Shown one piece after another: positions 20,257 to 63,913 of a stretch of 64,000 nt of DNA; position 1 is the first letter of the stretch; every line of letters begins with the position of its first letter. The notes under the pieces are model-generated. The model ran no database searches. It saw only the letters and a program-made list of their open reading frames with translations, and was not told the origin of the DNA. A program made the position numbers and the translations under genes. The DNA is from an uncultured Bacteroidales bacterium (GTDB lineage: Bacteria; Bacteroidota; Bacteroidia; Bacteroidales; FEN-979), in contig CAIWXI010000010.1 of the NCBI GenBank assembly GCA_903916595.1, positions 25,311 to 89,310 on the forward strand, read 5' to 3'.

Positions 20257-20349
20257 GGGTTCTGGGAGTCTTTAAGAATGATCAAAAATACGATTTTTGA
20301 CGAGAAAAATGATACGTTTATATTGTACAAACAATTCCTGTCATTTTCG

Positions 20350-20357
20350 TATCTTTG
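20350..20357 (+). promoter_or_regulatory. candidate Bacteroidota -7 promoter box (TAtcTTTG) upstream of guaB
   Basis: Matches the TAnnTTTG consensus. It ends 19 nt upstream of the guaB ATG. Confidence 0.4.
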
Positions 20358-20376
20358 CACTTTTATTTTGAGGCCT

Positions 20377-21843
20377 ATGATCACAGATTCAAATAAATTC
20401 CTTGGAGAAGGGTTAACCTACGATGATGTGCTCCTGATTCCTGCCTATTCAGAGGTTCTTCCGAGGGATGTGGATATCTCTACTCTGCTATCCAGGAACA
20501 TCCCTATGAACATCCCTATTCTGTCTGCTGCTATGGATACCGTTACTGAGTCGCATATGGCTATTGCCATGGCTCAGGAGGGAGGCATCGGGGTTCTTCA
20601 CAAAAACATGTCGATAGAAAACCAGGCGCTGCAGGTCAGGAAGGTGAAAAGAGCCGAGAACGGGATGATACTCGATCCGGTAACTTTACACGTATCGGCT
20701 TTGGTCGGCGATGCACTGGCCATGATGAAAGAACATTCCATCGGAGGAATCCCTGTTGTGAATGAACGCGAAGAACTGGTAGGTATAGTCACCAACCGTG
20801 ACCTGCGTTTCGAAAGGGATATGTCGCGCCCGGTGGCAGAGGTAATGACTCATAAGGTGATTACCATATCTGAGTTCATGAATTTTGAGAAAGCGGAGCA
20901 GATACTTCAGGAATATAAAATTGAGAAACTTCCGGTTATCGATAAAAACAACAGGCTTGTCGGCCTTATCACGTATAAAGATATCATCAAGATTAAAGCC
21001 AGGCCGAATGCCTGCAAGGACAGCCTCGGACGGCTGCGCGTGGCTGCTGCGATAGGCATTACTGCCGACACCCTGGAGCGTGCTGCCGCCCTCGTCAGAG
21101 AAGGTGTCGACGCTATCGTGATCGACACGGCCCATGGCCATACCAGAAACGTATTAGAAATTGCAAAGAAATTCAAAGCGGCCTATCCTAACATCGATAT
21201 GGTGGTAGGGAACATAGGTACCGCCGATGCTGCCAGAGACCTGGCTAAGGCTGGAGCCGATGCAGTAAAGGTGGGCATCGGGCCTGGATCTATCTGCACT
21301 ACAAGAATCATCGCGGGGATAGGCATTCCGCAGCTTTCAGCCGTATACGAGGTTGCAAAAGCCCTTAAAGGGACCGGAGTTCCGGTAATCGCCGACGGTG
21401 GGATCCGCTATACCGGCGATATTGTGAAAGCCCTTGCAGCAGGCGCCCACTCTATCATGGCGGGCTCCCTCTTCGCGGGCGTGGATGAATCGCCCGGCGA
21501 GACTATCATCTTTGAAGGCCGCAAATTCAAAACCTATAGAGGAATGGGTTCAATCGAAGCCATGCAGCATGGCTCCAGGGACCGCTATTTCCAGGATATG
21601 GAAGACGATATTAAAAAGTTGGTCCCCGAAGGTATCGTTGGCCGCGTGCCCTATAAAGGCTCCCTCTCTGAAGTGATCTACCAGATGGTTGGCGGACTGC
21701 GTTCAGGTATGGGATACACCGGCTCGGCCAACATGGAAGCTCTTCAGAAATCAAGGTTCATCAAAATCACATCGGCCGGTGTCACCGAAAGCCACCCCCA
21801 CGATGTCACTATCATCAGCGAAGCGCCAAATTACAGCCGTTAA
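20377..21843 (+). CDS. guaB: IMP dehydrogenase
   Basis: '[14 protein letters not shown]', a CBS pair and the catalytic loop '[11 protein letters not shown]'. Start moved from 20047 to ATG 20377 ([12 protein letters not shown]...). Confidence 0.95.
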
Positions 21844-35125: not shown

Positions 35126-35159
35126 AACCATCGCTCCGCGTTTTTGCAGGGCGATGGTT
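35126..35159. terminator. hairpin between convergent genes (AACCATCGC / GCGATGGTT, 16-nt loop)
   Basis: Perfect 9-bp inverted repeat read directly. The right arm overlaps the stop codon of the minus-strand gene. Confidence 0.35.
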
Positions 35160-37265: not shown

Positions 37266-38093
37266 TTATTTTCGGAATTGGTACTGGATTGAGATGGCCG
37301 GACTGAATCCCAGCGTCTGATTGTATTCCGAGGCAAAATCGACAGAAAAACGATTGATCACAATACCAGCACCAATGCTAAGCCTGAAAGGGCTTGTTGC
37401 CATGCCGGCCCTGGCTGAGAGAATTCTGGCAAACCGGTACTCGGCACCTACTCTCGCACAGGTTTTGCTTACAGGATCTTTTTCTGCCTCAGCTGAAACC
37501 AGAAGCTCATCGGTAAAATTATAGGAAAGCCCAAGCTGAAAGAGAGTTGGCAGGGATTCCCCTGAGACCCGGGATAGTTTAACCGGAACCGGATTTATAC
37601 AATGAAATCCAATTGCAACATGTTTTCCCGGTTTGAACAACAAACCTGCCTCGCAGTTGAGAATGTTCCTGGAACCATTATTATCCGAAATATGGAAACG
37701 GTAATAATTCAGCTGCACCCCTGCCGAAAAATGCTTTCCGAATTTTCTTGCATACCCCAGCCCGGTTTTTAGTTCACTGTAGATGCTTGTTCCAAAATGA
37801 GTACAGGTAAATGAAAATGTACCGGGACTGATAGTGGCTGAGAATACAAGTGCTTTGGCAGACAGTTCCTTGACCATAAAACGGTTTTCAAAAAATATTC
37901 CGCAGAGAATTCCTTCGTTCCATGCATTTGAGCCCTGGTTGCTTATGGCCGACCAGTTGTCGGTCAATGCAACCGAGATCCCCGACATCCCGCTTGCACG
38001 GCCTCCGACCGGTCTCCATTCTCCTGCCGCATGCATGTTCAGCGAAAAGATTAATAACAGAAAGCCAGGCCCTTTACTCACGAACTTCCTCAT
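37266..38093 (-). CDS. small beta-barrel-like outer membrane protein, N-terminus embedded in a 12-bp repeat
   Basis: Start placed at ATG 38093 (MRKFVSKGPGFLLLIFSLNMHA signal peptide). The frame stays open to ATG 38141 through the repeat (MRKFAKKFVRKFVKKF...). Confidence 0.55.
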   Translation of the reverse strand: MRKFVSKGPGFLLLIFSLNMHAAGEWRPVGGRASGMSGISVALTDNWSAISNQGSNAWNEGILCGIFFENRFMVKELSAKALVFSATISPGTFSFTCTHFGTSIYSELKTGLGYARKFGKHFSAGVQLNYYRFHISDNNGSRNILNCEAGLLFKPGKHVAIGFHCINPVPVKLSRVSGESLPTLFQLGLSYNFTDELLVSAEAEKDPVSKTCARVGAEYRFARILSARAGMATSPFRLSIGAGIVINRFSVDFASEYNQTLGFSPAISIQYQFRK

Positions 38094-38142
38094 GAACTTC
38101 TTTACGAACTTCCTCACGAACTTCTTTGCGAACTTCCTCACG
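38079..38142. repeat. tandem 12-mer ([CT][AG][CT]GAACTTC[CT]T) x5.3, in frame with the 5' end of the OMP gene
   Basis: cacgaacttcct catgaacttctt tacgaacttcct cacgaacttctt tgcgaacttcct cacg. On the minus strand it encodes (R/K)KF(V/A/M)-type repeats. Confidence 0.9.
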
Positions 38143-50623: not shown

Positions 50624-51391
50624 TTAATGGCTGATACTTTTCACTTTATTATTATCAGGCGGCTGTGAGGATGAGGTTTGTCTGCTTAAGGTCATCATGA
50701 CTGCCGCGGCCAGAGTGGAGGTTGCCAGGCATGCGAAGAGGGCGATATAGCCGAAACCGGCAATCAGCTGCCCGCCCAGTAAAGGACCCAGGAAAAAACC
50801 TCCCTGCATCATGATCAGCAGAAGATTCTGGTTTAATGCTCGTGCCGGGGGTAATGAAATATCGAACATGGCCGCGGCCTGAAGGGGCATGGCAATTCCC
50901 CAGCCGAGGCCTGTAACAACCGCGAGGAAGAATAATATGGCGGCGGAATCCGCATATGGGACCAGGCGAACAAGAGATACATAGCCAAAGGCGCGGCCGC
51001 TCATTCCGGGAGGTATAAAGGGAATGAGCATGGTAATAAGGGAAGAAAGTACGCAGATGAACCCAGCTCCCTGCAGCAGGCGGGCTGCGATCAGCAGGGG
51101 AATGGCCGAGAGTTGGCCGAGCATGAACAATGACAGTGAGAACAGGATAGCACCGCCCAGAAGCCACCGGCGGGCATTGCCGGCATGAATAAGAGGAGTG
51201 ATCAGAGGCTGGACGATAAATGCCGCAAGTGAGTCGGCGCTTAAAATGAGACCTCCCGTGGCAGGGTTGAACCCCATTTGGCTTAGATAGCCTGAAAAAA
51301 GAAAAAAAAGTGCGGTAATTGTTGTGATCAGCCCAAACTGGAGATTGATCAACACAAAGCCGGGCGAGAGAAGTGTGGAACGTTCAGTCAT
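50624..51391 (-). CDS. MFS-type transporter, unusually short (255 aa; possible internal deletion or pseudogene)
   Basis: MFS loop-2/3-like 'HAGNARRWLLGG'. About 8 TM segments instead of 12. A C-terminal-half-like segment follows directly after about TM5. Confidence 0.45.
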   Translation of the reverse strand: MTERSTLLSPGFVLINLQFGLITTITALFFLFSGYLSQMGFNPATGGLILSADSLAAFIVQPLITPLIHAGNARRWLLGGAILFSLSLFMLGQLSAIPLLIAARLLQGAGFICVLSSLITMLIPFIPPGMSGRAFGYVSLVRLVPYADSAAILFFLAVVTGLGWGIAMPLQAAAMFDISLPPARALNQNLLLIMMQGGFFLGPLLGGQLIAGFGYIALFACLATSTLAAAVMMTLSRQTSSSQPPDNNKVKSISH

Positions 51392-51657
51392 TTAGTCCCT
51401 CCAGAAAAACTGCCAGCAGGTTGCCTGCCAGTCTGCGCCGGTCGATAAAAGGCCGTTTGGGCTATAATATCTCCTGAGGCGGTGCTCTTGCCTTGCCAGG
51501 ATCTCAAGCGCTTCAGCTCTGTCCATAAAAAGGAGTATTTGACAATCGATATGAGCAAATTTAATAAAACTTTTTAAATACGAAAATAACCATATCAATT
51601 TTTGACTAGACTCAAAATTAAGTTATGTGCATTTTTGAATTTGTAAAAAATAATATC

Positions 51658-51665
51658 TATTTTTG
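51658..51665 (+). promoter_or_regulatory. candidate Bacteroidota -7 promoter box (TAttTTTG) upstream of the bcr cluster
   Basis: Matches TAnnTTTG. It ends 13 nt before the point (51679) where the bcrC reading frame opens. Confidence 0.35.
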
Positions 51666-51825
51666 GAAAGCCTTTTAACCTGATTTTATTCATCAAAAAA
51701 CCATACGCAAACTGAGCACCCTGAACGAAATAATTGCCCGATGTGAAGTACTGGCCTTTGACCTTTCTTTTTCCCGTGCAAAAGAATGGAAATCACAGAT
51801 TAGCAACAGGGTCCTCATCGGGCAT

Positions 51826-52875
51826 ATGCCGGTTTATTTTCCCCGTGAGATCATTCATGCTGCCAACGGTCTGGCCATAGGAATCCTGGGCGGAGGTGAT
51901 AAAAAACTGATCATCAAAGGCGATGCCTATTACCAGTCGTATATCTGCCATATGCCCCGCAGTATCATCGAGCTGGCTCTCGATAAGCATTTTGAAGGCT
52001 TCGACGGCTTCATTTTTCCTTCCATCTGCGATGTCATAAGGAACCTTTCCGGGATGTTCCAGCTGATGGAGATCGGTAAATTTGTCAAATACCTCGATTT
52101 TCCACAGAATTTTCTGCCCCACATTGGCGGTACCTTTTACCGGCATGAACTTCAGACGGTCCTCGATCAGGTCTATAAACTGAACGGGGTGGAAGTGACC
52201 GCCCAAAAGCTCAATCATTCCATAGGGCTGTTCAACTTAAACCGTCAGCTTATCTGCAAGTTGTATGACATCCGCCAGGAATTCCCATGGCGACTTACAG
52301 CTGCTGATGTTTACCATATAGTACGCGCTGGATATGTGATCCCCGTGGAAGAACATAATGAGATCCTTGAGGAAGTCATACGGCATATGCAAAAGGAATT
52401 CGGCGATCCTCTCGACAAGATCCGTGTTCTGGTGATCGGCGCTTTCTGTGAACAACCGCCGGCCGGACTGATCAAAACGATTGAACTGGCAGGCTGCTAT
52501 ATCGTAGAAGATGATTTCCTGCTTGGAGCCCGATGGATACAGGGTGATATTGATACTGCCGGATCAGATCCTTTAGGGGCAATTACTCAGGCTTACCTTG
52601 ATATGAGTACGTTCTCATCATCGGTTTATGATGTGGGTAATCCCAAGGAAGCCAGGCTGCTTCAGCTGATCAGGCAACGGAAGATCGACGGCGTGATCTT
52701 TGCCGCTCCGAGTTTTTGCGACCCTGCTTTACTTGACCATCCGATACTTCAAAAAGAATGTAATGACAAAGGCATCCGTTTTGTGAGCTTCCTCTACAGC
52801 GAAAATACGGGTCAGTTCAAGGTCATCAAGGAACAGGTTGGTACATTTTCTGATTCGATAAAGCTCTGGGACTGA
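51826..52875 (+). CDS. bcrC: benzoyl-CoA reductase subunit C-like (BcrC/BadD/HgdB family)
   Basis: 'PVYFPREIIHAANGLAIGILGGGD', 'YYQSYICHMPRS', 'FPSICDVIRN' and 'FAAPSFCDPALLDHP'. The first ATG is 51826, but family-typical sequence (LNEIIARCEVLAFDLSFSRAKEWK...) is in frame from 51679 with no ATG, GTG or TTG. Confidence 0.8.
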   Translation: MPVYFPREIIHAANGLAIGILGGGDKKLIIKGDAYYQSYICHMPRSIIELALDKHFEGFDGFIFPSICDVIRNLSGMFQLMEIGKFVKYLDFPQNFLPHIGGTFYRHELQTVLDQVYKLNGVEVTAQKLNHSIGLFNLNRQLICKLYDIRQEFPWRLTAADVYHIVRAGYVIPVEEHNEILEEVIRHMQKEFGDPLDKIRVLVIGAFCEQPPAGLIKTIELAGCYIVEDDFLLGARWIQGDIDTAGSDPLGAITQAYLDMSTFSSSVYDVGNPKEARLLQLIRQRKIDGVIFAAPSFCDPALLDHPILQKECNDKGIRFVSFLYSENTGQFKVIKEQVGTFSDSIKLWD

Positions 52876-52917
52876 GAGGTGCTCAGCGATAGTTTTAAAC
52901 TCTTCTGAAAAAAACAT

Positions 52918-54201
52918 ATGTCGAAAGAGGTTGCGAAAGAACGAAGCATGATCATCCAGAAAGAGATGATCACCCGGCAGTTTAAGGAACTGAGCATGGC
53001 CGGGGAGACAGGGAAGAAAGTGGTCTATACCTTCGTTCCGGGTAACATCTCCGAGTTGATCCTTTCGTTCGATATGCTGCCTGTATATCCCGAGATCAAT
53101 GCCTTGCAATCGGGAATGCGAAAAAAATCGGGTGGGTATATACGCGATGCCGAACAGCATGGTCATTCCGAAGATGTATGCACCTATGTGAAATGTGATG
53201 TTGGGATGATGCTGAGCGGGAATATAGGCCCCACGGGCGAAAAGATCCCGAAGCCGGATCTGCTGCTGCTTAGCTATACCGGCTGCTTTACGTTCATGAA
53301 ATGGTTTGAAACCCTCGAACGACTGTATCCCGGCGTCCCGGTTGCTATGCTCCATACTCCTTACCAGGAGGCCCATAAGATCACCCCCGAGATGACCGCC
53401 TATATGGTCAAACAGCTGAAGGAAGAAGTGATCCCGAAAATGGAAAAAGTTTCTGGGAATAAGTATGATGAAGAAAAACTGAAATCCATCCTCCGGAACT
53501 CTTCCAAAGTAGAGGATTATATTGTAAAGATCTTCGATACTACCAAACACAGGCCTTCTCCCATCGATGCCTATTTCGCCGGGGTGTATTATATAGGCCC
53601 CATCAACAGCGGCTTCAGGGGTACACCCCAGGCTGTTGATTATTATGCCGAGTTATATAAGGAGATACTTGAACGCATTGATAACAAGCTGGGGCCGATC
53701 ACTCCTGAGGGTGTGATGGAAGAAGAACGCTTCCGTCTGGTGGTGGAAGGCCCCCCAAACTGGACCCATTTTCGTGAATTCTGGAAACTTTTTTATGACA
53801 TGGGCGCCGTGATCGTGGCCTCTTCCTATACAAAAGTAGGAGGAGTGTACGATATGGGTTTCCGTGTCAATCCTGATAAACCCCTCGAAAGCCTGGCCGA
53901 ATACTGCATGAACTGCTACACTAATCTCAATCTTCAGCAACGTGTTGATCTTCTTTCCAAATGTATCACCGACTACCACGCCGACGGCTTCCTGGTAAAT
54001 TCAATTAAAAGTTGTAATTCATTCTCTGCAGGGCAATTGATGATTATGCAGAAACTGGAACGAAAGCTGGAAATACCTATTGGATTCATCGAATCCGACC
54101 TGGTCGATCCAAGATATTTCTCTTACTCGAATATCAAAAACAGGCTTGAATCATTTTTCCAGATGCTGGAGCAGAGGAAGATGATGAATATCCAGTCCTG
54201 A
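52918..54201 (+). CDS. bcrB: benzoyl-CoA reductase subunit B-like (BcrB/BadE/HgdA family)
   Basis: 'KVVYTFVPGNISELILSFDMLPVYPEINALQSGMRKKSGGYIRDAEQHGHSEDVCTYVKCDVGMM', 'YTGCFTFMKWFE' and 'NSIKSCNSFSAGQ'. Confidence 0.8.
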   Translation: MSKEVAKERSMIIQKEMITRQFKELSMAGETGKKVVYTFVPGNISELILSFDMLPVYPEINALQSGMRKKSGGYIRDAEQHGHSEDVCTYVKCDVGMMLSGNIGPTGEKIPKPDLLLLSYTGCFTFMKWFETLERLYPGVPVAMLHTPYQEAHKITPEMTAYMVKQLKEEVIPKMEKVSGNKYDEEKLKSILRNSSKVEDYIVKIFDTTKHRPSPIDAYFAGVYYIGPINSGFRGTPQAVDYYAELYKEILERIDNKLGPITPEGVMEEERFRLVVEGPPNWTHFREFWKLFYDMGAVIVASSYTKVGGVYDMGFRVNPDKPLESLAEYCMNCYTNLNLQQRVDLLSKCITDYHADGFLVNSIKSCNSFSAGQLMIMQKLERKLEIPIGFIESDLVDPRYFSYSNIKNRLESFFQMLEQRKMMNIQS

Positions 54202-54268
54202 TACTGCTGATGAGAATTGGTTTCTCCTGTGAACGGAGCAGGAATAGTTTAATTAAATAAGTTCATCA

Positions 54269-55645
54269 ATGAAGAAATATTTTTTGGGAATAGATCTCGG
54301 ATCAACCACCTCCAAAGCCATCATCATTGATGATAATGACAGGATCATTGGTCGGGGAATTACCAACACAAGGGCAAATTATACGGTTGCCACCGAGATC
54401 GCAAGGCTCGAAGCCATCTATAATGCAAGGTTTTCGCTGCTTAAGATGAAGCTCGAAGATGAAATCGAAAGCAAACCCGAATACAAACGATATATAAAGG
54501 ATGTTGAATCCATTTTTCAATATCTGCAGTTCAAACGCAGGCTCGACCGCCTGAATGTGCAATTCAGGGATACTATCGACAGTACTTTCAGCGGAGAGAA
54601 GAAAGACAAAATCAGCGGATTTGTCGACCGGATCGTAAAAGAGATCGGCCCTGCCGTCCTCAATGAATACCTGACCGGGAACCTGGGCCAGAAGAATCAG
54701 TTCTTCAGGGATATTATAAGCGAAAAATACAATAAAGATGTAAACGCACTTCCTAAAGATTATTTTGAACCTACAATGCTTGTTTACGACAAGAGCATAA
54801 GCCATGTTGAAAATGAACTCACCGAATATGATTTCAGGGACCTGGTTTACCAGGCAATGGAACTGCTGAATGATAAATATTCGGGGATGGACGATTCCTC
54901 TCCTGAAGAGACCGGTGTTGGTTTTGATAGCGAGCTGAATCTCCTAAAAGGTAATTATAAGCATATTTACGACTCACTGAAAGAGCATATCAGTTTTGTG
55001 GCCAACCTTGATATCCACATAACCAATATGGTTGGTACCGGCTATGGCCGTGCCCTTCTGCCTTTCCCTGAGAAATCAATACGCTCGGAGATCCTTTGTC
55101 ACGCATTTGGGGCCCATGCAGTTTTTCCCAATACACGGACCGTTCTCGATATTGGCGGACAGGATACCAAGGCGATACAGGTCGACAGTCATGGACTAGT
55201 CACGAGTTTTTACATGAACGACCGCTGCGCTGCAGGTTGCGGGCGTTATCTGGGGTATATCGCCGACGAGTTCAGCATTTCGTTGAATGAACTGGGCCCC
55301 CTGGCCATGGAAGCCACCAATGAAGTGAATATCTGCTCTACATGTACTGTGTTTGCTGCTGCAGAGATCAGGGAGCTGCTAAACGTGGGACAGAAACGAT
55401 CGGACATCCTGGCTGGTTTGCACAGGGCCATCGTGATGCGGGCTATGTCGCTGCTTGCACGCTCGGGAGGGGTCAGGAATGAGTTTACATTTACCGGCGG
55501 CGTCGCCCGCAACCAGGCTGTGCTGAAATATGTTTCGGACCTGGTGCTGCAGAATTACGGCAAGGATATTACGATCAATGTGCATACCGATTCGATATTC
55601 ATGGGAGCCCTCGGTGGCGCCATGTTTGCCCGAAGGGGTGCATGA
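54269..55645 (+). CDS. bcrA: benzoyl-CoA reductase subunit A-like (BcrAD/BadFG ATPase, long form)
   Basis: 'LGIDLGSTTSKAII', cluster-ligand region 'NDRCAAGCGRYLG' and 'ICSTCTVFAAAE'. A roughly 200-aa insertion after the first ASKHA motif, as in BcrA-type subunits. Confidence 0.8.
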   Translation: MKKYFLGIDLGSTTSKAIIIDDNDRIIGRGITNTRANYTVATEIARLEAIYNARFSLLKMKLEDEIESKPEYKRYIKDVESIFQYLQFKRRLDRLNVQFRDTIDSTFSGEKKDKISGFVDRIVKEIGPAVLNEYLTGNLGQKNQFFRDIISEKYNKDVNALPKDYFEPTMLVYDKSISHVENELTEYDFRDLVYQAMELLNDKYSGMDDSSPEETGVGFDSELNLLKGNYKHIYDSLKEHISFVANLDIHITNMVGTGYGRALLPFPEKSIRSEILCHAFGAHAVFPNTRTVLDIGGQDTKAIQVDSHGLVTSFYMNDRCAAGCGRYLGYIADEFSISLNELGPLAMEATNEVNICSTCTVFAAAEIRELLNVGQKRSDILAGLHRAIVMRAMSLLARSGGVRNEFTFTGGVARNQAVLKYVSDLVLQNYGKDITINVHTDSIFMGALGGAMFARRGA

Positions 55646-55691
55646 AACATACAGGAATTATTTGAATAGCGGGCCCGGTTTCGGGAAAAAA

Positions 55692-56525
55692 ATGAAGAAA
55701 CAGGAAATTTATACCATAGGTGTCGACGTGGGCAGCAGTAACATCAAAGCTGTACTGATGGAGTATTCAGACCAGCCGGTCATTATTGATCAGCTCAGCG
55801 AAAGGATCAGGAAAAGAAACCCTGAAATGGTCGCCGATCAGCTTATTGATCTTATCCTTGAGAGAAATTCACTCAATTACAAGGACATCGCTTACCTCGC
55901 TTCTACAGGTGAAGGAGAAATGCTGATGCGGAAACGCGGGCATTTTTACAGCATGACAACCCATGCCAAAGGCGGCGTCTTCCTATGCCCGGGCTCAATG
56001 ACCGTTGTAGATATGGGCGCCCTGTATGTGAGGGCCATTAAAATAAATGAACTGGGAAGGGTGCTTGACTATAAGATGACCGGGCAATGCGCTTCCGGCT
56101 CAGGGCAGTTTATTGAAAACATTTCCCGTTACCTGGGTCTGGCTATCGATGATGTAGGACCCACATCCCTTAAATCGGTCACTCCTGAAACACCTTCAGG
56201 GATATGTTCAGTCCTTGCCGAAACCGATGTGATCAATATGGTGTCACGGGGAATATCCACACCCGATATCATCAAAGGAATCCATCTGTCGATAGCCAAT
56301 AAGATCGTCAAACTGCTGTCTTCACTCAAAGCTACTTCCCCGGTCGTCCTTACCGGCGGAATGGCTATGAATACCGGCATGATCCAGGCAGTGCAGGAAC
56401 TGATCGAAGAAAGTAAGATGAATCTTGAAATCAAGGCGCATCCCGATTCCATCTATTCAGGCGCTATCGGAGCGGCCATCTGGGGAGGCTTCCGATATTA
56501 TAAATTAAATCTGACCAGAAATTAA
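55692..56525 (+). CDS. bcrD: benzoyl-CoA reductase subunit D-like (BcrAD/BadFG ATPase, short form)
   Basis: Start moved to ATG 55692 (MKKQEIYTIGVDVGSSNIKAV...). 'MTGQCASGSGQFIE' and 'ICSVLAETDVINM'. Confidence 0.8.
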   Translation: MKKQEIYTIGVDVGSSNIKAVLMEYSDQPVIIDQLSERIRKRNPEMVADQLIDLILERNSLNYKDIAYLASTGEGEMLMRKRGHFYSMTTHAKGGVFLCPGSMTVVDMGALYVRAIKINELGRVLDYKMTGQCASGSGQFIENISRYLGLAIDDVGPTSLKSVTPETPSGICSVLAETDVINMVSRGISTPDIIKGIHLSIANKIVKLLSSLKATSPVVLTGGMAMNTGMIQAVQELIEESKMNLEIKAHPDSIYSGAIGAAIWGGFRYYKLNLTRN

Positions 56526-56552: not shown

Positions 56553-58634
56553 ATGAACGACGCGCTTGATGCATTATTCAAACCCAGGGCCGTTGCGCTC
56601 ATCGGGGCTTCTGCCAAAGAACTCTCAATCGGCAATGTGATCATCAAAAACCTTATCCATTACAGGTTCAACGGTCCGGTTTATCCGATAAATCCTAAGG
56701 TGGATGAGATCCGTGGGCTGAAAGCATATCCCTCAATTCTTGATGTTCCGGGCGAAGTCGACCTGGCCCATATCGTAATCCCTCCTCCTTTTGTACCTGA
56801 AGAAGTTGAGAACTGCGGAAAGAAGGGAATCAAAGCCATCATTATAAATACAGCAGGGTTCAAGGAAATGGGTGCCGAAGGACAGGCACTGGAGAATGAC
56901 TTTCTCAAAAGGGCCGCAAAATATGGTATTCGCATCGTTGGCCCGAACTGCCAGGGGATCATTAATTCAGATCCGGCCATTAACGCCTATTGCAATTTTA
57001 CGTTTACCTTCCCTCATCCCGGACATATCTCTGTGGTAGCACAAAGCGGAGGAGTAGGAGCGGTCCTTATGCAGGCCTTTCATGATATGGGTGTAGGACA
57101 GCGGATGTATGCTTCCAATGGTAATGGGTCGGATGTTTCCATTACCGAATTCATCAGTTATTACGGAAAAGATGAAGAAACAAGGGCTATTGTGCTGTAT
57201 GCCGAAAGCCTTGGAAATCCTTTGGAGTTTATTGAAGTCGTAAAAAAAGTAACAGCACGTAAGCCGGTTCTTGCCATCACTGCAGGTAGGACTGATAAAG
57301 GCGCTGAAGCTTCAAGGTCGCATATTGGCGGATTGGCCGGCAGTATTTCAATGGATCTCATTTATAAAAAGGCTGGTATACTTACATTTCACAACCAGGA
57401 AGAGTTATGCCATGCAGCCGTGGCTTTATCCTCTCAGCCAGTCCCCAAAGGAAACAGGGTAGGTATCATAACAAATACTGGCGGGCCTTCGGTCATCGCC
57501 ATCGATGAGCTGGTGAGTTGCGGACTTACACTTCCACCCTTATCCGCCAATGCTATTGAAACCCTGAAAGGGACCATGCTTGAATCAGCATCTATAAGAA
57601 ATCCGCTGGATGTAGTTGCCACCGCCGGCCCTCTTCATTTCCGAAGTGCCCTCGAAGTAATGATGAACGAGGAACAGTATGATAGTATTTATCTGAACTT
57701 TGTTACTCCACCATTTGTTGATTGTGAAAGTGTTGCCCGGGAGATCACGTCAGCAGCCCGCGCAGGGAATAAGCCCGTCGTATGTAATTATATGACCGAT
57801 AAACAGGAATGGCGCTCTACTTCCGCTATTCTGAAAGAAGGAAAGATCCCCTGCTTTGATTTTGCTGAAACCGCTGCGAGGGCCTTGTATTCACTGGTTC
57901 GTTATAATTCTATCCTGTCATCAGAAAAAGGTAAAATAAAACTATTTGCTGATGTCGAAAAGGAGAGAGTCAGGATGATACTCACCGATGCCCATCATCA
58001 GAACAGGGAAGTGCTTTCGGCTCATGATGTATACTCAATTCTTGATGCCTATAAAATACCTGTTGCTCCATGGAAAGTTGCATCAGATGTGAAAGAGGTA
58101 GTCTATGTGGCAGGTCAGATTGGCTTTCCGGTCGTAATAAAAGCCGACTCTGAACAGATCATTCATAAAAGTGATGTAGGAGGTGTTGCTGTTAACATTA
58201 TGACTACTGCTGAAGCAAATGCTGCAGTTGAGAAAATGAAAAGTACTCTGGGTGGCGGAATGAGGTTTCTGGTCCAGAAATGTCTTGTCCCGGGCAGGGA
58301 ACTTATTATTGGTGCGAAAGCTTCTCCGGGCACCGGGCCTATCATCATGTTCGGCCTTGGTGGGATCTTTGTCGAAGTCCTGAAAGATGTTGCCTTTGCC
58401 ATCAGCCCGCTAAGTGATACCGAAGCCAGCGAAATGATCAGCTCAATTAAAGCTGCAGCCCTGATCAACGGTTTCAGAGGGCAAAAAGGAATCAATAAGG
58501 CAAAAACTGTTGAGATAATTCAACGGATATCTATGCTTTGCAACGATTTTCCAATAATTAAAGAGCTTGACCTTAATCCTTTGTTTGCAACGGGCGACGA
58601 TATATGCGTTGTGGATGCAAGGATTATTCTTTAG
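56553..58634 (+). CDS. ADP-forming (NDP-forming) acyl-CoA synthetase, fused alpha-beta type
   Basis: CoA-binding N-terminus 'AVALIGASAKELSIGNVIIKNL...VYPINPK'. Phosphohistidine segment 'EASRSHIGGLAGS'. C-terminal ATP-grasp 'GFPVVIKADSEQIIHKSDVGGVAVNI'. Confidence 0.85.
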   Translation: MNDALDALFKPRAVALIGASAKELSIGNVIIKNLIHYRFNGPVYPINPKVDEIRGLKAYPSILDVPGEVDLAHIVIPPPFVPEEVENCGKKGIKAIIINTAGFKEMGAEGQALENDFLKRAAKYGIRIVGPNCQGIINSDPAINAYCNFTFTFPHPGHISVVAQSGGVGAVLMQAFHDMGVGQRMYASNGNGSDVSITEFISYYGKDEETRAIVLYAESLGNPLEFIEVVKKVTARKPVLAITAGRTDKGAEASRSHIGGLAGSISMDLIYKKAGILTFHNQEELCHAAVALSSQPVPKGNRVGIITNTGGPSVIAIDELVSCGLTLPPLSANAIETLKGTMLESASIRNPLDVVATAGPLHFRSALEVMMNEEQYDSIYLNFVTPPFVDCESVAREITSAARAGNKPVVCNYMTDKQEWRSTSAILKEGKIPCFDFAETAARALYSLVRYNSILSSEKGKIKLFADVEKERVRMILTDAHHQNREVLSAHDVYSILDAYKIPVAPWKVASDVKEVVYVAGQIGFPVVIKADSEQIIHKSDVGGVAVNIMTTAEANAAVEKMKSTLGGGMRFLVQKCLVPGRELIIGAKASPGTGPIIMFGLGGIFVEVLKDVAFAISPLSDTEASEMISSIKAAALINGFRGQKGINKAKTVEIIQRISMLCNDFPIIKELDLNPLFATGDDICVVDARIIL

Positions 58635-58669: not shown

Positions 58670-59629
58670 ATGGAAAACAAGAATTATAAGATCGGGATCA
58701 TCGGATTAGGGCCCATAGGCCATACTTTAGCCGTGCATTTCAAGCATGCAGGATGTGAAGTTGCTATTACTGACCTTGACAGGGGCAAGCTCAGCCTGAT
58801 CATGCAGGAAGGGATCGAATTAGTTAACCGTCTTGAGAAAAAATCTTTTTTCAAACATGTTTACTATTCACTGGAGGAGATGCTTGAACATGATTTTGAC
58901 ATTCTCATCTCCGCTGTAAAAGATTATCATGTCGATCATATTGTCCAGGTCATTAAACGTAATCTCAAGAAAGATGTGTTCCTGCTGAGCGCTCAAAACG
59001 GGATTGACGTCAGAAAAAAATACCTCGCTCATTTTCCGAACTCATCAATCCTCAGGATGGTGATCAATTTTGCCGGGAACCTTCAGGCACCGAATGTAAC
59101 GGCGATTAGCTTTTTTAATCCTCCTAATTACATTGGTTCAATGGATGATTCACAGGAGGAGTTGGCAAAATGGGTTGCTGCAACATTATCAAGTGTGGGC
59201 ATGAAAACAGAACAGGCAAATTCATTCACAATTATCGACAAGATATGGGAAAAGACTATTCTTAACGCGGCTCTCAGTCCGCTCTGCGCCATATCCCGTC
59301 TTACCATGAAAGAAGCCATGAACAATGGCGATACCCTGGAAATTATCGAACAGATACTGTATGAAGCAGTACAGGTTGCTAATGCCGAAGAAATAAAGCT
59401 CCCCGACAATTTTATCAAACTGGCGATACGTTACCTCAGCAATGCAGGGAATCATATGCCATCCCTTGCCGTTGACCTTATAAATAACCGGGAGACCGAG
59501 ATCGACTTCATGAACGGGAAAATCGTTGAATACGGAAGAAAACATTATATAAAAACCCCAATAAACCTTGTTCTTACCAACCTCGTCAATGCCATCTCCT
59601 GCAAAAACGGAGTCGGGAAATGTAAGTAA
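58670..59629 (+). CDS. 2-dehydropantoate 2-reductase (PanE/ApbA) family oxidoreductase
   Basis: Rossmann motif 'KIGIIGLGPIGHTLA'. ApbA_C-like 'MPSLAVDLINNRETEIDFMNGKIVEYGRKHYIKTPINLVL'. Confidence 0.75.
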   Translation: MENKNYKIGIIGLGPIGHTLAVHFKHAGCEVAITDLDRGKLSLIMQEGIELVNRLEKKSFFKHVYYSLEEMLEHDFDILISAVKDYHVDHIVQVIKRNLKKDVFLLSAQNGIDVRKKYLAHFPNSSILRMVINFAGNLQAPNVTAISFFNPPNYIGSMDDSQEELAKWVAATLSSVGMKTEQANSFTIIDKIWEKTILNAALSPLCAISRLTMKEAMNNGDTLEIIEQILYEAVQVANAEEIKLPDNFIKLAIRYLSNAGNHMPSLAVDLINNRETEIDFMNGKIVEYGRKHYIKTPINLVLTNLVNAISCKNGVGKCK

Positions 59630-59675: not shown

Positions 59676-59697
59676 AATATTATAAAAGTCAACCGTG

Positions 59698-60759
59698 ATG
59701 AAAAAAATATTGTTCTCCTTCCAAATGACCGCTCCCGATGCTGATTTTCAGCTTACCGAAAGCGTATTACCTGTCCCTGCCGAACATGAAGCCCTTGTAA
59801 AAATAGCAGGCTGCGGTGTTTGTCATACCGACCTCAGCTTCTGGCATCACGGAGTGAAAACAAAGAAAGAACTTCCTCTTACACTGGGGCACGAAATCAG
59901 CGGAACCGTTGTTGCTGGTCCTGCTCAATGGCTTGGAAAAAATGTGATCATTCCGGCTGTTTTGCCATGCGGGGAATGTGAATTATGCCGTAAAGGCAGA
60001 AGTAATATGTGCCAGAAACAACTTATGCCGGGGAATGATTTCAATGGTGGCTTTGCTTCACATATCCTTGTTCCGTCGAGATTTCTTTGCGAAGTGCCGG
60101 ATTCCCTGTTGTCAAAATATTCCCTTGAAAAATTATCGGTCATCGCCGATGCCATTTCAACTCCTTACCAGGTCATTAAAAAGTCGGAACTCGAAGCAGG
60201 TGATTTTGCTATCGTGATCGGAGTGGGAGGTGTTGGCATTTATGCTGCGCTGATTGCACGTATATTCGGTGCTAAGGTGTTAGCTCTCGATATCGATGAT
60301 AATAAGCTTGAAACAGCGAAGAAGCATGGAATTGACGCAGTACTGAACATAAAAGGCCTGGATATAAAAGCGATCAAGGAAAACGTAAGGGAAATAGCGA
60401 AAGGGCTCGGAGTTTCACGTTACGGATGGAAGATTTTCGAGATGTCGGGAACCAAACCCGGACAGGAACTCGGATTTAATCTGATCACCTTCACCTCAAC
60501 CCTGTCAATCGTGGGGTTCACTCTCGACCGGACTGAAGTTCGCCTGAGTAACCTGATGGCGTTTGATGCAAAAGTCATAGGGACCTGGGGCTGTAAACCG
60601 GAACTTTATCCCGAAGTCGTGGATCTTATCGCCACAGGCAAGTTGAAGATCGATGATTTTATTGAAACTTTTCCCTTGTCAAAGATCAACGAAGTGTTCC
60701 GGAATACCCTGAACCATATGTATTCAAAGAGATCGGTACTGGTCCCGGATTTTGATTAA
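59698..60759 (+). CDS. had: 6-hydroxycyclohex-1-ene-1-carbonyl-CoA dehydrogenase-like (Zn-dependent MDR family)
   Basis: 'GCGVCHTDLSFWHHGV...PLTLGHEISGTVV', structural-Zn 'CGECELCRKGRSNMC' and 'VIGVGGVGIYA'. Size and position next to oah and dch support the call. The ORF track begins at GTG 59695. Confidence 0.7.
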   Translation: MKKILFSFQMTAPDADFQLTESVLPVPAEHEALVKIAGCGVCHTDLSFWHHGVKTKKELPLTLGHEISGTVVAGPAQWLGKNVIIPAVLPCGECELCRKGRSNMCQKQLMPGNDFNGGFASHILVPSRFLCEVPDSLLSKYSLEKLSVIADAISTPYQVIKKSELEAGDFAIVIGVGGVGIYAALIARIFGAKVLALDIDDNKLETAKKHGIDAVLNIKGLDIKAIKENVREIAKGLGVSRYGWKIFEMSGTKPGQELGFNLITFTSTLSIVGFTLDRTEVRLSNLMAFDAKVIGTWGCKPELYPEVVDLIATGKLKIDDFIETFPLSKINEVFRNTLNHMYSKRSVLVPDFD

Positions 60760-60786: not shown

Positions 60787-61878
60787 ATGTTAGCAAGTCA
60801 CAATCTTACGGAATTCAGTTACAAGGCGATACTGTTCGAAAAACGTCCCTGTCTCGACCATGGCGGTAAGCCCGTAGAAGGGTTGTTTAATGCCTGGATC
60901 ATTCTCAACAACCCCCAGCAGTTCAACTCATATACAACCGAAGCGGTCAAGGAGGTGATCCTTGCGATGCGTGAAGCCTCGAACGATCGCAGCGTGGTTG
61001 CCATAGTCTTTACTGCGGTAGGCGACAAGGCTTTCTGTACTGGTGGCAACACCAGGGAGTATGCCGAATATTATGCCGGAAACCCCCAGGAATACAAGCA
61101 ATACATGCGTTTGTTCAACGATATGGTTTCTGCTATTCTGATGAACGACAAGCCGGTTGTTTGCCGGGTCAACGGGATGAGGATAGGGGGCGGACAGGAG
61201 ATTGGTATGGCCTGTGATTTTTCAATTGCCCAGGATTTTGCGAGATTCGGGCAGGCCGGTCCTAAGCACGGAAGCGCACCCGACGGGGGATCCACCGACT
61301 TCCTTCCGCTTTTTGTCGGAATTGAAAGTGCCATGTTCTCCTGTACAGTTTGTGATCCGTGGTCAGCCTACGAAGCCCTGAAAGGCGGATTGCTGACCGA
61401 AGTGGTCCCGGCCCTGAAAGTCAATGGTGAATTTATTCCCAATCCGCTTGTTTATACCGATCAGTGGGTGAACAGCAAGGGGCAGATCATCTATGGAAAA
61501 TCCAAAACAGGAGAGGAACTCGCCAAAGCAAAAGAACTGGTGAAAACAGGCGTGATGGATCTCGCGATGCTGGATATGGCCGTTGAGAAATTTTGTACCA
61601 GGCTGATGTACCTTATGCCCAACTGCCTTAGTAAAACCCTCAATTCCCTCAGAAAACATAAACTCGAGCATTGGGATAAGAACAAGGAAAGCAACCGTGA
61701 CTGGCTGGCACTGAACATGATGACCGAAGGCAAAGCCGGTTTCCGCGCTTTCAACGACGGTCCCAAAGATAAGCGGGAAGCTGATTTTATCAAACTCAGG
61801 CAGATGCTTGCCCAGGGCCATGAATGGAATGATGACCTCATTAAAGCCATATCCCCCCAGTTTCAGGAAACAAAATAA
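60787..61878 (+). CDS. oah: 6-oxocyclohex-1-ene-1-carbonyl-CoA hydrolase (ring-cleaving crotonase, Oah/BamA)
   Basis: 'PQQFNSYTTEA', 'CTGGNTREYAEYYAGNPQEYKQYMRLFNDMV' and 'NGMRIGGGQEIGMACDF'. At 363 aa it is much longer than ordinary enoyl-CoA hydratases. Confidence 0.85.
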   Translation: MLASHNLTEFSYKAILFEKRPCLDHGGKPVEGLFNAWIILNNPQQFNSYTTEAVKEVILAMREASNDRSVVAIVFTAVGDKAFCTGGNTREYAEYYAGNPQEYKQYMRLFNDMVSAILMNDKPVVCRVNGMRIGGGQEIGMACDFSIAQDFARFGQAGPKHGSAPDGGSTDFLPLFVGIESAMFSCTVCDPWSAYEALKGGLLTEVVPALKVNGEFIPNPLVYTDQWVNSKGQIIYGKSKTGEELAKAKELVKTGVMDLAMLDMAVEKFCTRLMYLMPNCLSKTLNSLRKHKLEHWDKNKESNRDWLALNMMTEGKAGFRAFNDGPKDKREADFIKLRQMLAQGHEWNDDLIKAISPQFQETK

Positions 61879-61889
61879 TATCAGCAAGA

Positions 61890-62663
61890 ATGCAAAAGAT
61901 CAAAGTAGAATACCTGTACGACAATGCCGTGGCCAGGGTCATACTTGACGATGGCAAAGCCAATATCCTCGACAGCATCATGATGAGCGAGATCAATGAT
62001 TTCCTTACATCATTGAAAGATAAAAAGGAGGTCAAGCTGATCACCTTCGAAGGCGCCGGAAATAATTTTTCATATGGCGCCAGTGTGGCAGAGCACACCA
62101 AAGATAAGGCTGCGGAGATGCTGGATAGTTTCCATAAAATGTTCTTTTTACTTATCGGATTGCATATTCCCACTTTGGCCAAATTGTCGGGGAATTGCCT
62201 TGGCGGTGGATTTGAGCTGCCCCTGGCCTGTAATTTCATTTTCGCCGATAAGACTGCCAGGATCGGGCAGCCTGAGGTCATCCTGGGAGTGTTCGCTCCT
62301 CCGGCTTCAGTGATACTGCCGCTTAAAGTGGGCAATACAAGGGCCGAAGAACTGCTGATCACCGGAAGAGTTATTACGGCAGATGAAGCTAAAAATATCG
62401 GACTGGTCAATGATGTCTTCGACGACAGGGCCAGCCTCGATGCTGCCGTGGAGGCGTGGATACAAAAGAATATTCTTCCGAAAAGCGCTTCTGCACTCAG
62501 ATTTGCGACCCGGGCTGCCAGGGCCTCATTTGATTTCTTTATGCTGAAACATCTGCCGGCTTTCGCCGATATGTACGTTAAGGAAATGATGGAAACCCAT
62601 GATGCCAATGAAGGAATTAATTCATTTCTCGAAAAGAGAAAACCTGAATGGAAAAACTGTTAA
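61890..62663 (+). CDS. dch: cyclohexa-1,5-diene-1-carbonyl-CoA hydratase-like enoyl-CoA hydratase
   Basis: Crotonase fold 'FEGAGNNFSYGASVAEH' and 'GNCLGGGFELPLACNFIFA...IGQPEVILGVFAP'. 257 aa, adjacent to oah. Confidence 0.7.
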   Translation: MQKIKVEYLYDNAVARVILDDGKANILDSIMMSEINDFLTSLKDKKEVKLITFEGAGNNFSYGASVAEHTKDKAAEMLDSFHKMFFLLIGLHIPTLAKLSGNCLGGGFELPLACNFIFADKTARIGQPEVILGVFAPPASVILPLKVGNTRAEELLITGRVITADEAKNIGLVNDVFDDRASLDAAVEAWIQKNILPKSASALRFATRAARASFDFFMLKHLPAFADMYVKEMMETHDANEGINSFLEKRKPEWKNC

Positions 62664-63913
62664 ACATGAGTGAACCAATAATCCAGGAAAAAAGCGAGCT
62701 TGTAAAGCTGCAATCGGCCGGCGAATTACGAAAGACCATGGATGGGTATTTCTCCCGTCTGAGGGAAGCAGCCGAAACCGGAGTAAGAAAAGTCGCCTGG
62801 TGCACCAGTGTCGGACCTGCCGAACTCTTATATTCCATGGGCTTCGAGGTGTATTTCCCCGAGAACCACGGAGCTATGCTTGGCGCCGGAAAGAATGCCG
62901 ATAAATACATCCCCTCGGCCGTCGCCCATGGGTATTCTCCCGAGATCTGCTCTTACCTCACCAGCGACATAGGCGCCTTCCTGCAAAACGAAACCCCGCT
63001 TCAGAAAAGCGGGTTCAAGTCGGTACCCAAACCCGATGTGCTGGTCTACAATACGAACCAGTGCAGGGAAGTTGCCGACTGGTTTGGCTTTTATGCCAGG
63101 CATTTTAATGTGCCCATTCTTGGTATTCATACCCCTCTTTGTATTCCTGAACTCACCCCGGAAATAATAAAAACGGTAGCGGATCAGTACCGGAACATAA
63201 TTCCCTCACTGGAGCAGGTCGCCGGACGAAAATTCGACATGGACCTGTTCAGGCAGGCAGTGGCGCTTTCGCACGACGGCTGCGTTCTGTGGAAAGAGAT
63301 CCTGGGGAAAGCAAAGCACAGGCCTTCACCCATCAATTTCTTCGATTCGGCCATCCATATGGGCCCTATCGTAGTGATGCGGGGAACTCAATACGCCGTG
63401 GATTATTATAAAGTACTCCTGGCCGAGCTGGATCAAAGGATACAGGATGGGATCAGCGCCGTACCTCATGAAAAACACAGAATTTACTGGGAAGGCATGC
63501 CCCTCTGGTATAAACTCAGCAGCATGGCCAAGTTGTTTTCCAAATTTAATACCAGCATAGTCGCCTCCACATACTGCAACAGCTGGGTATTCGACGACCT
63601 TGACCCTGCCGATCCATTTGAATCCTCGGCTCTTGCTTATTGCAAACTGTTCATCGTAAGGTCTGATGCAGTCAAGGAAGACATCCTTCAGCAACTGATG
63701 ATCGATTTTTCGGTGGATGGCATTATCTACCATGAATCAAAGACCTGTACAAGGAACTCTAACAACCTGTTCGGCTTGCAGAACCGGCTGTTCAAAAAGA
63801 CCCGGCTGCCCTTCATAGAAATTAACGGAGATCTCAATGACCCCCGTTGTTTCAGTGAAGAGCAAAGCATCATCGCAATTGAAACATTCATACATCAACT
63901 TTCCGGCAGATGA
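62648..63913 (+). CDS. additional 2-hydroxyacyl-CoA dehydratase / benzoyl-CoA reductase family subunit (HgdA/BcrB-like paralogue)
   Basis: 'KVAWCTSVGPAELLYSMGFEVYFPENHGAMLGA', 'YSPEICSYLTSDIG', 'NTNQCREVADWF' and 'YHESKTCTRNSNN'. 16-nt overlap with dch; an alternative ATG lies at 62666. Confidence 0.75.
   Translation: MEKLLNMSEPIIQEKSELVKLQSAGELRKTMDGYFSRLREAAETGVRKVAWCTSVGPAELLYSMGFEVYFPENHGAMLGAGKNADKYIPSAVAHGYSPEICSYLTSDIGAFLQNETPLQKSGFKSVPKPDVLVYNTNQCREVADWFGFYARHFNVPILGIHTPLCIPELTPEIIKTVADQYRNIIPSLEQVAGRKFDMDLFRQAVALSHDGCVLWKEILGKAKHRPSPINFFDSAIHMGPIVVMRGTQYAVDYYKVLLAELDQRIQDGISAVPHEKHRIYWEGMPLWYKLSSMAKLFSKFNTSIVASTYCNSWVFDDLDPADPFESSALAYCKLFIVRSDAVKEDILQQLMIDFSVDGIIYHESKTCTRNSNNLFGLQNRLFKKTRLPFIEINGDLNDPRCFSEEQSIIAIETFIHQLSGR

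Follow-up and report, generated by a model that had tools for sequence, protein, structure and literature searches.

A putative Thauera-type class I benzoyl-CoA reductase operon in an uncultured Bacteroidales bacterium and its relatives

The bcrCBAD genes and their assignment

The window analyzed here is a stretch of 64,000 nt from contig CAIWXI010000010.1 (GCA_903916595.1) of an uncultured Bacteroidales bacterium, and coordinates are positions in this window unless another locus is named. Ten genes occupy its + strand from 51.7 to 63.9 kb as one tight operon-like run with intergenic gaps of -16 to 67 nt. The first four, spaced by 42, 67 and 46 nt, have the subunits of an ATP-dependent (class I) benzoyl-CoA reductase (BCR) as their best family matches: bcrC for the gamma subunit (51712-52875, 387 amino acids (aa) when read from a CTG codon, in an open reading frame (ORF) open from 51679), bcrB for the catalytic beta subunit (52918-54201, 427 aa), bcrA for the ATPase alpha subunit with a long insertion (54269-55645, 458 aa) and bcrD for a second ATPase subunit (55692-56525, 277 aa). 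They are followed by a fused alpha-beta ADP-forming acyl-CoA synthetase (56553-58634, 693 aa), a PanE/ApbA-like NAD(P)H-dependent reductase (58670-59629, 319 aa), had (59695-60759), oah or bamA, for the ring-opening 6-oxocyclohex-1-ene-1-carbonyl-CoA hydrolase (60787-61878), a dch-like gene for cyclohexa-1,5-dienecarbonyl-CoA hydratase (61890-62663), and an orphan alpha-type subunit of the dehydratase/BCR family (62648-63913, 421 aa).

Proteins were scored in bits against NCBIfam equivalog models with their curated cut-offs, and for each BCR-pathway gene the corresponding pathway model was the best match by a wide margin. For the first four genes, benz_CoA_red_C, B, A and D match best (E-values 1e-95 to 1e-193), so these identities are not due to chance. 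BcrB (643.5 bits against a cut-off of 486.55 for TIGR02260) and BcrD (319.6 against 312.85, TIGR02261) pass outright, and BcrC passes when translated from CTG 51712 (450.6 against 421.15, TIGR02263); Had (dearomat_had, TIGR03201, 444.3 against 338.65) and Oah (dearomat_oah, TIGR03200, 576.6 against 464.45) also pass. A first-pass annotation of this DNA had described four consecutive same-strand genes in the order C-B-A-D, with subunit sizes near those of BcrCBAD, two non-identical ATPase subunits, and had, oah and dch about 3 kb downstream. ORFs and family matches place the four genes exactly there on the + strand, the two ATPases are distinct, and the three pathway genes start 3.2 kb past the bcr genes.

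As Bcr-type references we used the NCBIfam models TIGR02259-02263 and the bcrCBAD clusters of the isolate Azospirillum sp. sgz301742 (L083) and of Inmirania thermothiophila (L084), whose products carry BCR subunit names at NCBI. Identities to the L083 and L084 proteins are 47-50% for BcrC, 62-66% for BcrB, 43-45% for BcrA and 50-51% for BcrD, and 49-50% for Had, 60-64% for Oah and 37-38% for Dch; subunit lengths of 387/427/458/277 aa compare with 390-393/428-436/435-436/280-281 aa. Shared with this type are the C-B-A-D order (found wherever bcr subunit genes occur in 80 related and 4 reference loci), the near-equal sizes, the long insertion in A, a degenerate DxGAL motif in BcrD that is also present in proteobacterial BcrD, all cluster cysteines, the BcrB active-site motifs, and linkage to had, oah and dch. 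The window differs in arrangement: both reference clusters run had-oah-dch-bcrCBAD-fdx, the order of Thauera aromatica too, whereas in the window bcr precedes had-oah-dch, a synthetase and a PanE-like gene are inserted, and the 81-aa ferredoxin gene after bcrD and a nearby 2-oxoglutarate:ferredoxin oxidoreductase are lacking. In addition, bcrC starts with CTG or TTG in the window's clade, and the BcrA of this clade is longer by ~25 residues and falls under its family cut-off.

The residues of BcrB can be read against a solved relative. In the crystal structure of BzdNO, Cys95, Cys128 and Cys380 of BzdO ligate the catalytic aqua-[4Fe-4S] cluster, Glu65 and His131 lie beside the water ligand, and Tyr97, Tyr298 and Gln274 are found at the thioester oxygen (PMC11971306). 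In alignments to PDB entries, BcrB C88 (VCTY), C123 (GCFTF) and C366 (KSCN) match the three cluster ligands, and Y90 and Y304 match Tyr97 and Tyr298, the two thioester-binding tyrosines. E59, within a YPEIN motif, lines up with a PE motif in MbdO and HadB and is probably equivalent to Glu65, the BzdO alignment itself beginning at residue 81. Four motifs, SEDVCTYVK, SYTGCFTFMKWFE, EGPPNWT and SIKSCNSFSAGQ, are identical across the compared BcrB of Proteobacteria and those from the Fibrobacterota-Chlorobiota-Bacteroidota (FCB) group. Of the cysteine contexts that the first-pass annotation had listed for this subunit, VCTY and KSCN stand; C93 of VKCD is not conserved, being Ala in the proteobacterial enzymes, and C123 of GCFTF had been missed.

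Other class I enzymes are more distant. No solved structure comes closer for any of the four subunits than MbdONQP, the 3-methylbenzoyl-CoA reductase (PDB 9g87, 9gai and others), which ranks ahead of HadBC and shares C-x-T-F-x-K-W after the second BcrB cysteine as well as five cysteine positions of the C/N subunit; its scores are nevertheless just 196, 190, 206 and 119-126 bits, and MbdQ lacks the long BcrA insertion. BzdNOPQ of Aromatoleum (BzdNO structures 8s02) belongs to the same enzyme family, and BcrB keeps its three cluster cysteines, Tyr97 and Tyr298, but the scores are 69-87 bits, and the BzdN and BzdO models give only 83 and 79 bits.

From these sequence comparisons we consider it highly probable that bcrCBAD encode a functional ATP-dependent class I benzoyl-CoA reductase of the Thauera/Bcr type, a heterotetramer that would feed Dch, Had and Oah. 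Several observations weigh against this assignment. BcrA reaches 424.7 bits against a cut-off of 578 for benz_CoA_red_A (TIGR02259), and Dch 216.7 against 292.5 for dienoyl_CoA_hyt (TIGR03189), each model being the best match. No ATG, GTG or TTG codon occurs in the bcrC frame in the 49 codons between the upstream stop at 51676-78 and ATG 51826. At the active site, BzdO His131 is replaced in BcrB by Phe126 (Phe also in MbdO and in proteobacterial BcrB) and Gln274 by Pro279, the same Phe and Pro occurring in MbdO or proteobacterial BcrB. Neither the ADP-forming synthetase nor the AMP-forming ligase that stands in its place in more distant relatives resembles a known benzoate-CoA ligase, and genes for ferredoxin and 2-oxoglutarate/pyruvate:ferredoxin oxidoreductase are absent from the window and from the 10 kb around bcr in close relatives. 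Finally, the tie of the clade to the characterized Thauera aromatica enzyme runs through NCBIfam models and proteobacterial orthologs.

That the enzyme is instead a class I aryl-CoA reductase acting on a substituted analogue (hydroxy-, methyl-, amino- or halo-benzoyl-CoA), as MBR-type enzymes do, appears unlikely to us. Such a substrate would suit a clade that stands apart from the proteobacterial one at 43-66% identity, adjoins CoA-activating enzymes other than canonical benzoate-CoA ligases, and has a divergent Dch; nearby genes resembling those of 4-hydroxybenzoyl-CoA reductase also show that substituted substrates enter the cluster. However, the active-site motifs of BcrB are the same as in proteobacterial Bcr-type enzymes, MBR-type subunits are far more distant (196 and 190 bits), and Had and Oah pass the equivalog cut-offs of the unsubstituted pathway. 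A dedicated enzyme resembling 4-hydroxybenzoyl-CoA reductase argues, moreover, that hydroxyl removal precedes ring reduction.

The start of bcrC and the ATPase pair

Public gene calls begin bcrC at ATG 51826 and give a protein of 349 aa, the minimum length that the first-pass annotation had fairly assigned to the C subunit. This call trims 38 conserved residues: the ORF, which ends with a stop codon at 52875, is in frame across the 49 codons upstream of this ATG, which encode a conserved N-terminus, and the family profile begins 35 positions before it. Because of this trimming the public BcrC falls under the NCBIfam cut-off, with 410.1 bits against 421.15. An alignment of ~65 related loci puts the homologous start at CTG 51712, ten codons ahead of a conserved cysteine codon; ATG is found there in a more distant clade, TTG in most close-clade loci, and CTG in the window and in five related loci (L003, L004, L008, L010 and L011). 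We therefore read bcrC as probably translated from CTG 51712.

The loss of a canonical start could be taken to mean that this genome carries the operon in a decaying or silent state, since the 49 codons upstream of ATG 51826 hold no ATG, GTG or TTG and the 349-aa product would miss ~35 conserved N-terminal positions. We regard decay as very unlikely. The 38 N-terminal codons hold the frame without a stop, ~30 species conserve the protein sequence that they encode, the CTG start position is common to five related loci with TTG in most others of the clade, the remaining genes are all intact, and identical proteins are present on more than 100 contigs.

The cysteine contexts ICH (C79), ICD (C106) and FCDP (C336), which had been singled out in BcrC from the sequence alone, are conserved, and two further conserved cysteines, C246 (FCEQ) and C262 (GCY), can be added; all five are invariant across all Bcr-type sequences aligned. 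When BcrC was aligned with BzdN and the double-cubane protein, the six-cysteine pattern of an [8Fe-9S] double-cubane cluster was not found. At two cysteine positions common to those two proteins (ATMC and DDQC contexts) BcrC has Pro and Leu, and it carries instead two other conserved cysteines that it shares with MbdN.

Both ATPases carry the predicted cluster-bridging cysteine pair, C320/C359 in BcrA and C133/C172 in BcrD, aligned with C127/C166 of HgdC, and BcrA has the ASKHA ATP-binding motifs GSTTSK and GGQDTK. The long BcrA-type insertion proposed for the A subunit is real: it spans approximately residues 40-245, has its homologue in proteobacterial BcrA and shares the FFRD and YDKSI..VEN motifs with it. 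It is missing from MbdQ, HgdC and HadI, and alignments to activators in the PDB skip residues 55-249. Over its full length BcrA is 43-50% identical to BcrA of Proteobacteria and others. Within the insertion, at ~205-230, the FCB clade has ~25 extra residues that are missing from the aligned sequences of Proteobacteria, Syntrophobacteraceae and Thermincola, and we take this segment, together with the general divergence of the insertion, to explain the score of BcrA below its cut-off.

It is scarcely credible, given this make-up, that the four genes encode a 2-hydroxyacyl-CoA dehydratase of two HGD-D subunits with one or more activators. The Pfam families HGD-D and BcrAD_BadFG are indeed shared, and a true dehydratase-like subunit with its own activase lies in the same cluster. 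However, HadB and HadC, the dehydratase models, have cut-offs of 750 and 700 and yield just 168 and 157 bits, where BCR models B and C give 643 and 451; in contrast to HadBC/HadI and HgdAB/HgdC, the operon has two distinct ATPase genes, one with the BcrA-type insertion that HgdC, HadI and MbdQ lack; and it is linked to had, oah and dch. On family scores and subunit make-up we reject the dehydratase reading, and the presence of the Had and Oah equivalogs in the same operon likewise favors an aromatic-ring reductase, as had been proposed from the sequence.

Host genome, clade and distribution

The remainder of the window holds an ordinary chromosomal gene set, including glycoside hydrolases, a sulfatase, carAB, guaB, SurA-like isomerases, MoxR, a phosphate ABC transporter, an ECF sigma factor, psd, cdsA, ftsH, uvrA, rmlC and lpd. 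For two large - strand ORFs, at 35158-37245 (695 aa) and 37266-38141 (291 aa), Pfam gives no match at E<=1e-6. The first-pass annotation had judged the flanks Bacteroidota-like and free of transposase, integrase, tRNA or compositional break, and each part of this held: six flanking and three cluster proteins fall in clusters at >=90% identity with proteins of metagenome-assembled genomes (MAGs) that NCBI labels 'Bacteroidales bacterium', neither a tRNA nor any Rfam match was detected in the window, no transposase or integrase domain was found among the large window ORFs scanned, and the GC content of the cluster genes is 0.42-0.50 against 0.46 for the window.

Between lpd and bcrC lies a 255-aa fragment of an MFS transporter (50624-51391, - strand, GC 0.527 against 0.46), which is without a homologue in 80 related loci and is the only lineage-specific piece, set inside a conserved backbone. 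In L004, a Bacteroidota MAG of a related species, uvrA, rmlC and lpd lie directly upstream of bcrC on one contig, lpd and bcrC being direct neighbors. The protein accessions MEI6888108 to 143 of the NCBI Bacteroidales MAG follow the order of the window genes over a stretch that takes in MoxR, FtsH, rmlC, bcr and the orphan subunit, and the exact BcrB protein is found on 129 contigs (the longest 236 kb) and the exact BcrA on 101. The fragment, with its raised GC and want of a counterpart, is what might suggest that mis-assembly or mis-binning at 50.6-51.7 kb joined the cluster to a Bacteroidales backbone; the chance of this is negligible and we reject it, chimerism being excluded for practical purposes by colinearity in independent Bacteroidales MAGs, by exact proteins on contigs of up to 236 kb and by an even GC across the cluster.

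Relatives of BcrB were sought in one genome per species (GTDB), which gave 533 stretches, and the best 80 of the 533 (76-96% identity) were examined. All 80 come from MAGs. Their labels are Bacteroidales, Lentimicrobiaceae, Saprospiraceae, Flavobacteriales, Vicingaceae, Chitinophagales, Sphingobacteriales, Ignavibacteria, Chlorobiota and Calditrichaceae, besides a few generic 'bacterium' records and one 'Gammaproteobacteria' contig. The latter (L041, RFGN01000074.1, 7.8 kb, 'Gammaproteobacteria bacterium J025') carries a bcr operon that groups on very short branches with that of a Saprospiraceae MAG (L042), and probably results from mis-binning. Read at face value, the record titles would suggest stratified lakes, fen and groundwater as habitats of the relatives. 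In a search of cluster representatives with BcrA, the list is headed by full-length, long BcrA-type proteins that make up few 50%-identity clusters, and relatives of BcrA are also found in MAGs labeled Acidobacteria, Actinobacteria, Thermincola, Syntrophobacteraceae, Thermodesulfobacteriota and many Proteobacteria. A plasmid collection returned just distant dehydratase-family matches (22-25% identity) and no named Thauera-type reference, and searches for homologues directed at Thauera BcrA yielded no record from that genus.

Trees of the subunits were built by neighbor-joining with 200 bootstraps and few outgroups, from a sampling that did not extend to Thauera, Rhodopseudomonas or Ferroglobus sequences. 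Within this sampling the FCB sequences form a single clade of Bcr type for each of the four subunits and for their concatenate, with 100% support in each case, separate from the proteobacterial clade; a BcrA tree that includes 20 non-FCB relatives, with short activators as outgroups, gives the same result (FCB clade 100%, apart from the proteobacterial clade). The window's own clade, the one with the ADP-forming synthetase, is monophyletic in 71-100% of bootstraps. The separation of the FCB clade at full support indicates an old, coherent Bcr-type lineage rather than a recent import, and we reject a recent transfer from Proteobacteria for all four subunits.

The enzyme kind and gene set are already known; what the window represents is a distinct clade of them, common in uncultured Bacteroidota. 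In the NCBI and JGI databases the B proteins already bear the name 'benzoyl-CoA reductase subunit B', and for A the NCBI names in the 90% cluster are 'BadF/BadG/BcrA/BcrD ATPase family protein' and 'acyl-CoA dehydratase activase'. Class I bcr genes are reported from Krumholzibacteriota MAGs (PMC10936416) and, in PMC11704145, from MAGs of Zixibacteria, Acidobacteriota and Desulfobacterota; the lignin-monomer degraders listed there include one Bacteroidota MAG. These are likewise metagenome-derived bcrABCD and benzoyl-CoA pathway genes outside the denitrifying Proteobacteria, but the passages concerned give gene-presence calls and hold no analysis of a Bacteroidota clade, of the operon, of start codons or of accessory genes. 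Full-text literature searches returned no analysis of the Bacteroidota bcr clade itself. The rarity outside Proteobacteria and Ferroglobus that the first-pass annotation had implied is thus not borne out, given at least 80 MAG species at 76-96% identity, existing database names and published bcr genes in MAGs of other phyla.

Neighboring genes, proposed pathway and electron donor

A candidate promoter of the operon lies at 51634-51665 on the + strand, ~45 nt 5' of the bcrC start, and consists of TTTG, 20 nt and TAnnTTTG, a definition that we take to be that of Bacteroides promoters. The pattern has 4 matches in the window against 1.65 expected, this one being the sole match in front of the operon, and it may tentatively be regarded as a Bacteroidota-type promoter. 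Scans for sigma-70 promoters and terminators and a search for inverted repeats upstream of bcrC gave nothing informative.

Directly after bcrD, the synthetase (Pfam CoA_binding, Succ_CoA_lig and ATP-grasp_5) has 4-hydroxybutyrate--CoA ligase (ADP-forming; PDB 8wzu) as its best NCBIfam and PDB relative. The two share the fused alpha-beta ADP-forming architecture and align over the full length at 433 bits, but the window protein lies far under the cut-off of that family (518 against 1300 bits). An ADP-forming enzyme occupies this position in the window's clade, and an AMP-forming ligase, whose PDB relatives are all distant at ~100 bits or less, does so in 30 more distant FCB-clade loci (for example L054 13558-15318). 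This same operon position suggests that the two have the same role, the activation of an acid, at a cost of one rather than two ATP equivalents, and the ADP-forming synthetase may be an ATP-saving replacement of the AMP-forming ligase. It might also run in reverse, gaining ATP from an acyl-CoA.

Three further genes recur as a conserved trio beside bcr in nearly all related loci of sufficient length: the orphan subunit, its own activase and the PanE-like reductase. The orphan subunit (Pfam HGD-D) has HadB as its closest solved relative (170 bits; MbdO 115 bits), with three cysteines, a PE motif and Val where BzdO has His131, and is present in most related loci that reach far enough downstream; a 256-aa activase follows it just past the window end, at 11382-12152 of L001, which is from the same contig. 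The PanE-like reductase scores 166.8 bits against a cut-off of 141.35 for TIGR00745, and a single protein of ~600 aa joins this domain to an activase ATPase in at least 22 related loci (for example L054 16473-18287). PanE-family enzymes reduce 2-oxo acids to 2-hydroxy acids. The simplest interpretation, though a guess, is that the trio forms a 2-hydroxyacyl-CoA dehydratase route, for instance from aryl-lactyl-CoA to cinnamoyl-CoA, which beta-oxidation would then convert to benzoyl-CoA. By our own reasoning the reverse hydroxyglutarate route for the orphan subunit (glutaconyl-CoA to 2-oxoglutarate) ranks below the aryl-lactate route, because the NAD(P)-linked oxidation of a 2-hydroxy acid is unfavorable.

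Further downstream on L001 are genes for a thiolase, an 821-aa FadB-like protein, an acyl-CoA dehydrogenase whose best match is the Desulfococcus-type glutaryl-CoA dehydrogenase, and, at 17192-21266 (17-21 kb downstream of bcrB), MocA, XdhC and a molybdoenzyme consisting of an FAD subunit and a fused [2Fe-2S]+molybdopterin subunit. A full-length ortholog of the molybdoenzyme (82% identical, in the corresponding gene group at L031 9918-13610) scores 964 bits with the 4-hydroxybenzoyl-CoA reductase alpha model, against a cut-off of 994.55 and 578 for the next family. In this ortholog the N-terminus carries the fused gamma subunit, and the FAD subunit is XdhB-like and matches just the first 120 positions of the HcrB model. 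From its sequence, the molybdoenzyme looks like a variant 4-hydroxybenzoyl-CoA reductase.

We hypothesize that BcrA and BcrD form an ATPase dimer that, by homology, would hold one bridging [4Fe-4S] cluster on C320/C359 and C133/C172 and accept an electron from a low-potential donor encoded elsewhere. ATP hydrolysis would drive this electron through BcrC, by way of its FeS cluster, to the [4Fe-4S] cluster of BcrB (C88, C123, C366), where benzoyl-CoA would be reduced to cyclohexa-1,5-diene-1-carbonyl-CoA. The reaction of Thauera-type enzymes is a two-electron reduction that spends 2 ATP per 2 electrons. Dch, Had and Oah would then hydrate and oxidize the product and open the ring to give 3-hydroxypimeloyl-CoA, which the downstream thiolase, FadB-like and glutaryl-CoA-dehydrogenase-like proteins could carry on to acetyl-CoA. 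To judge from its position, the ADP-forming synthetase most likely forms the CoA thioester of the incoming acid at the expense of one ATP, and the molybdoenzyme may funnel in 4-hydroxylated substrates.

It is tempting to speculate further that the whole cluster is an energy-trimmed anaerobic aromatic pathway of strictly anaerobic Bacteroidales, fed by amino acids or phenylpropanoids, although we consider this doubtful. In such a pathway the PanE-like reductase, the synthetase and the orphan subunit with its activase would act on phenylpyruvate or 4-hydroxyphenylpyruvate, leading through aryl-lactate and aryl-lactyl-CoA to cinnamoyl- or coumaroyl-CoA. Beta-oxidation would then give benzoyl-CoA or 4-hydroxybenzoyl-CoA, and the variant 4-hydroxybenzoyl-CoA reductase and the class I reductase would complete the sequence, with a general ferredoxin or flavodoxin supplying the electrons. 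Such a route from aromatic amino acids to benzoyl-CoA would, if real, be new, and it would run counter to the rule that an ATP-dependent reductase is beyond the means of obligate anaerobes.

Anoxic waters and sediments contain much aromatic carbon, which derives from lignin fragments, humic matter and aromatic amino acids, and ring reduction is the bottleneck in its degradation; a widespread and coherent clade adds an abundant group, uncultured Bacteroidota and their relatives, to the likely anaerobic aromatic degraders. With no dedicated ferredoxin, an ADP-forming synthetase and an extra segment in BcrA, it would also offer enzymology a natural variant. Its distinctive side features, interesting but unproven, are the lack of a ferredoxin gene of its own, the synthetase of the ADP-forming kind, the accessory trio and a start codon other than ATG. 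It is important to note that public pipelines under-call the clade, with C truncated by a wrong start and A named only as a generic ATPase, and so surveys that require four named subunits may miss these genomes.

As the first-pass annotation had observed, no ferredoxin gene follows bcrD among the window ORFs. An 81-aa fdx stands after bcrD in both L083 and L084, and a gene pair for a POR/TPP 2-oxoacid:ferredoxin oxidoreductase adjoins the L084 cluster. A motif scan and tblastn with the Fdx and KorA/B of Inmirania and Azospirillum detected no homologue of these proteins in the window or in 82 FCB loci; the electron donor is therefore probably encoded elsewhere than at the bcr locus. Ferredoxin adjacency is a feature of the operon and does not define the enzyme. 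The sole ferredoxin candidate seen near any FCB bcr cluster is a conserved 95-aa ferredoxin-like ORF with the motif CxxCxxCxxxCP, which lies some kb from bcr in three Ignavibacteria loci (L039 5439-5726, L043 231-521 and L048 12553-12840).

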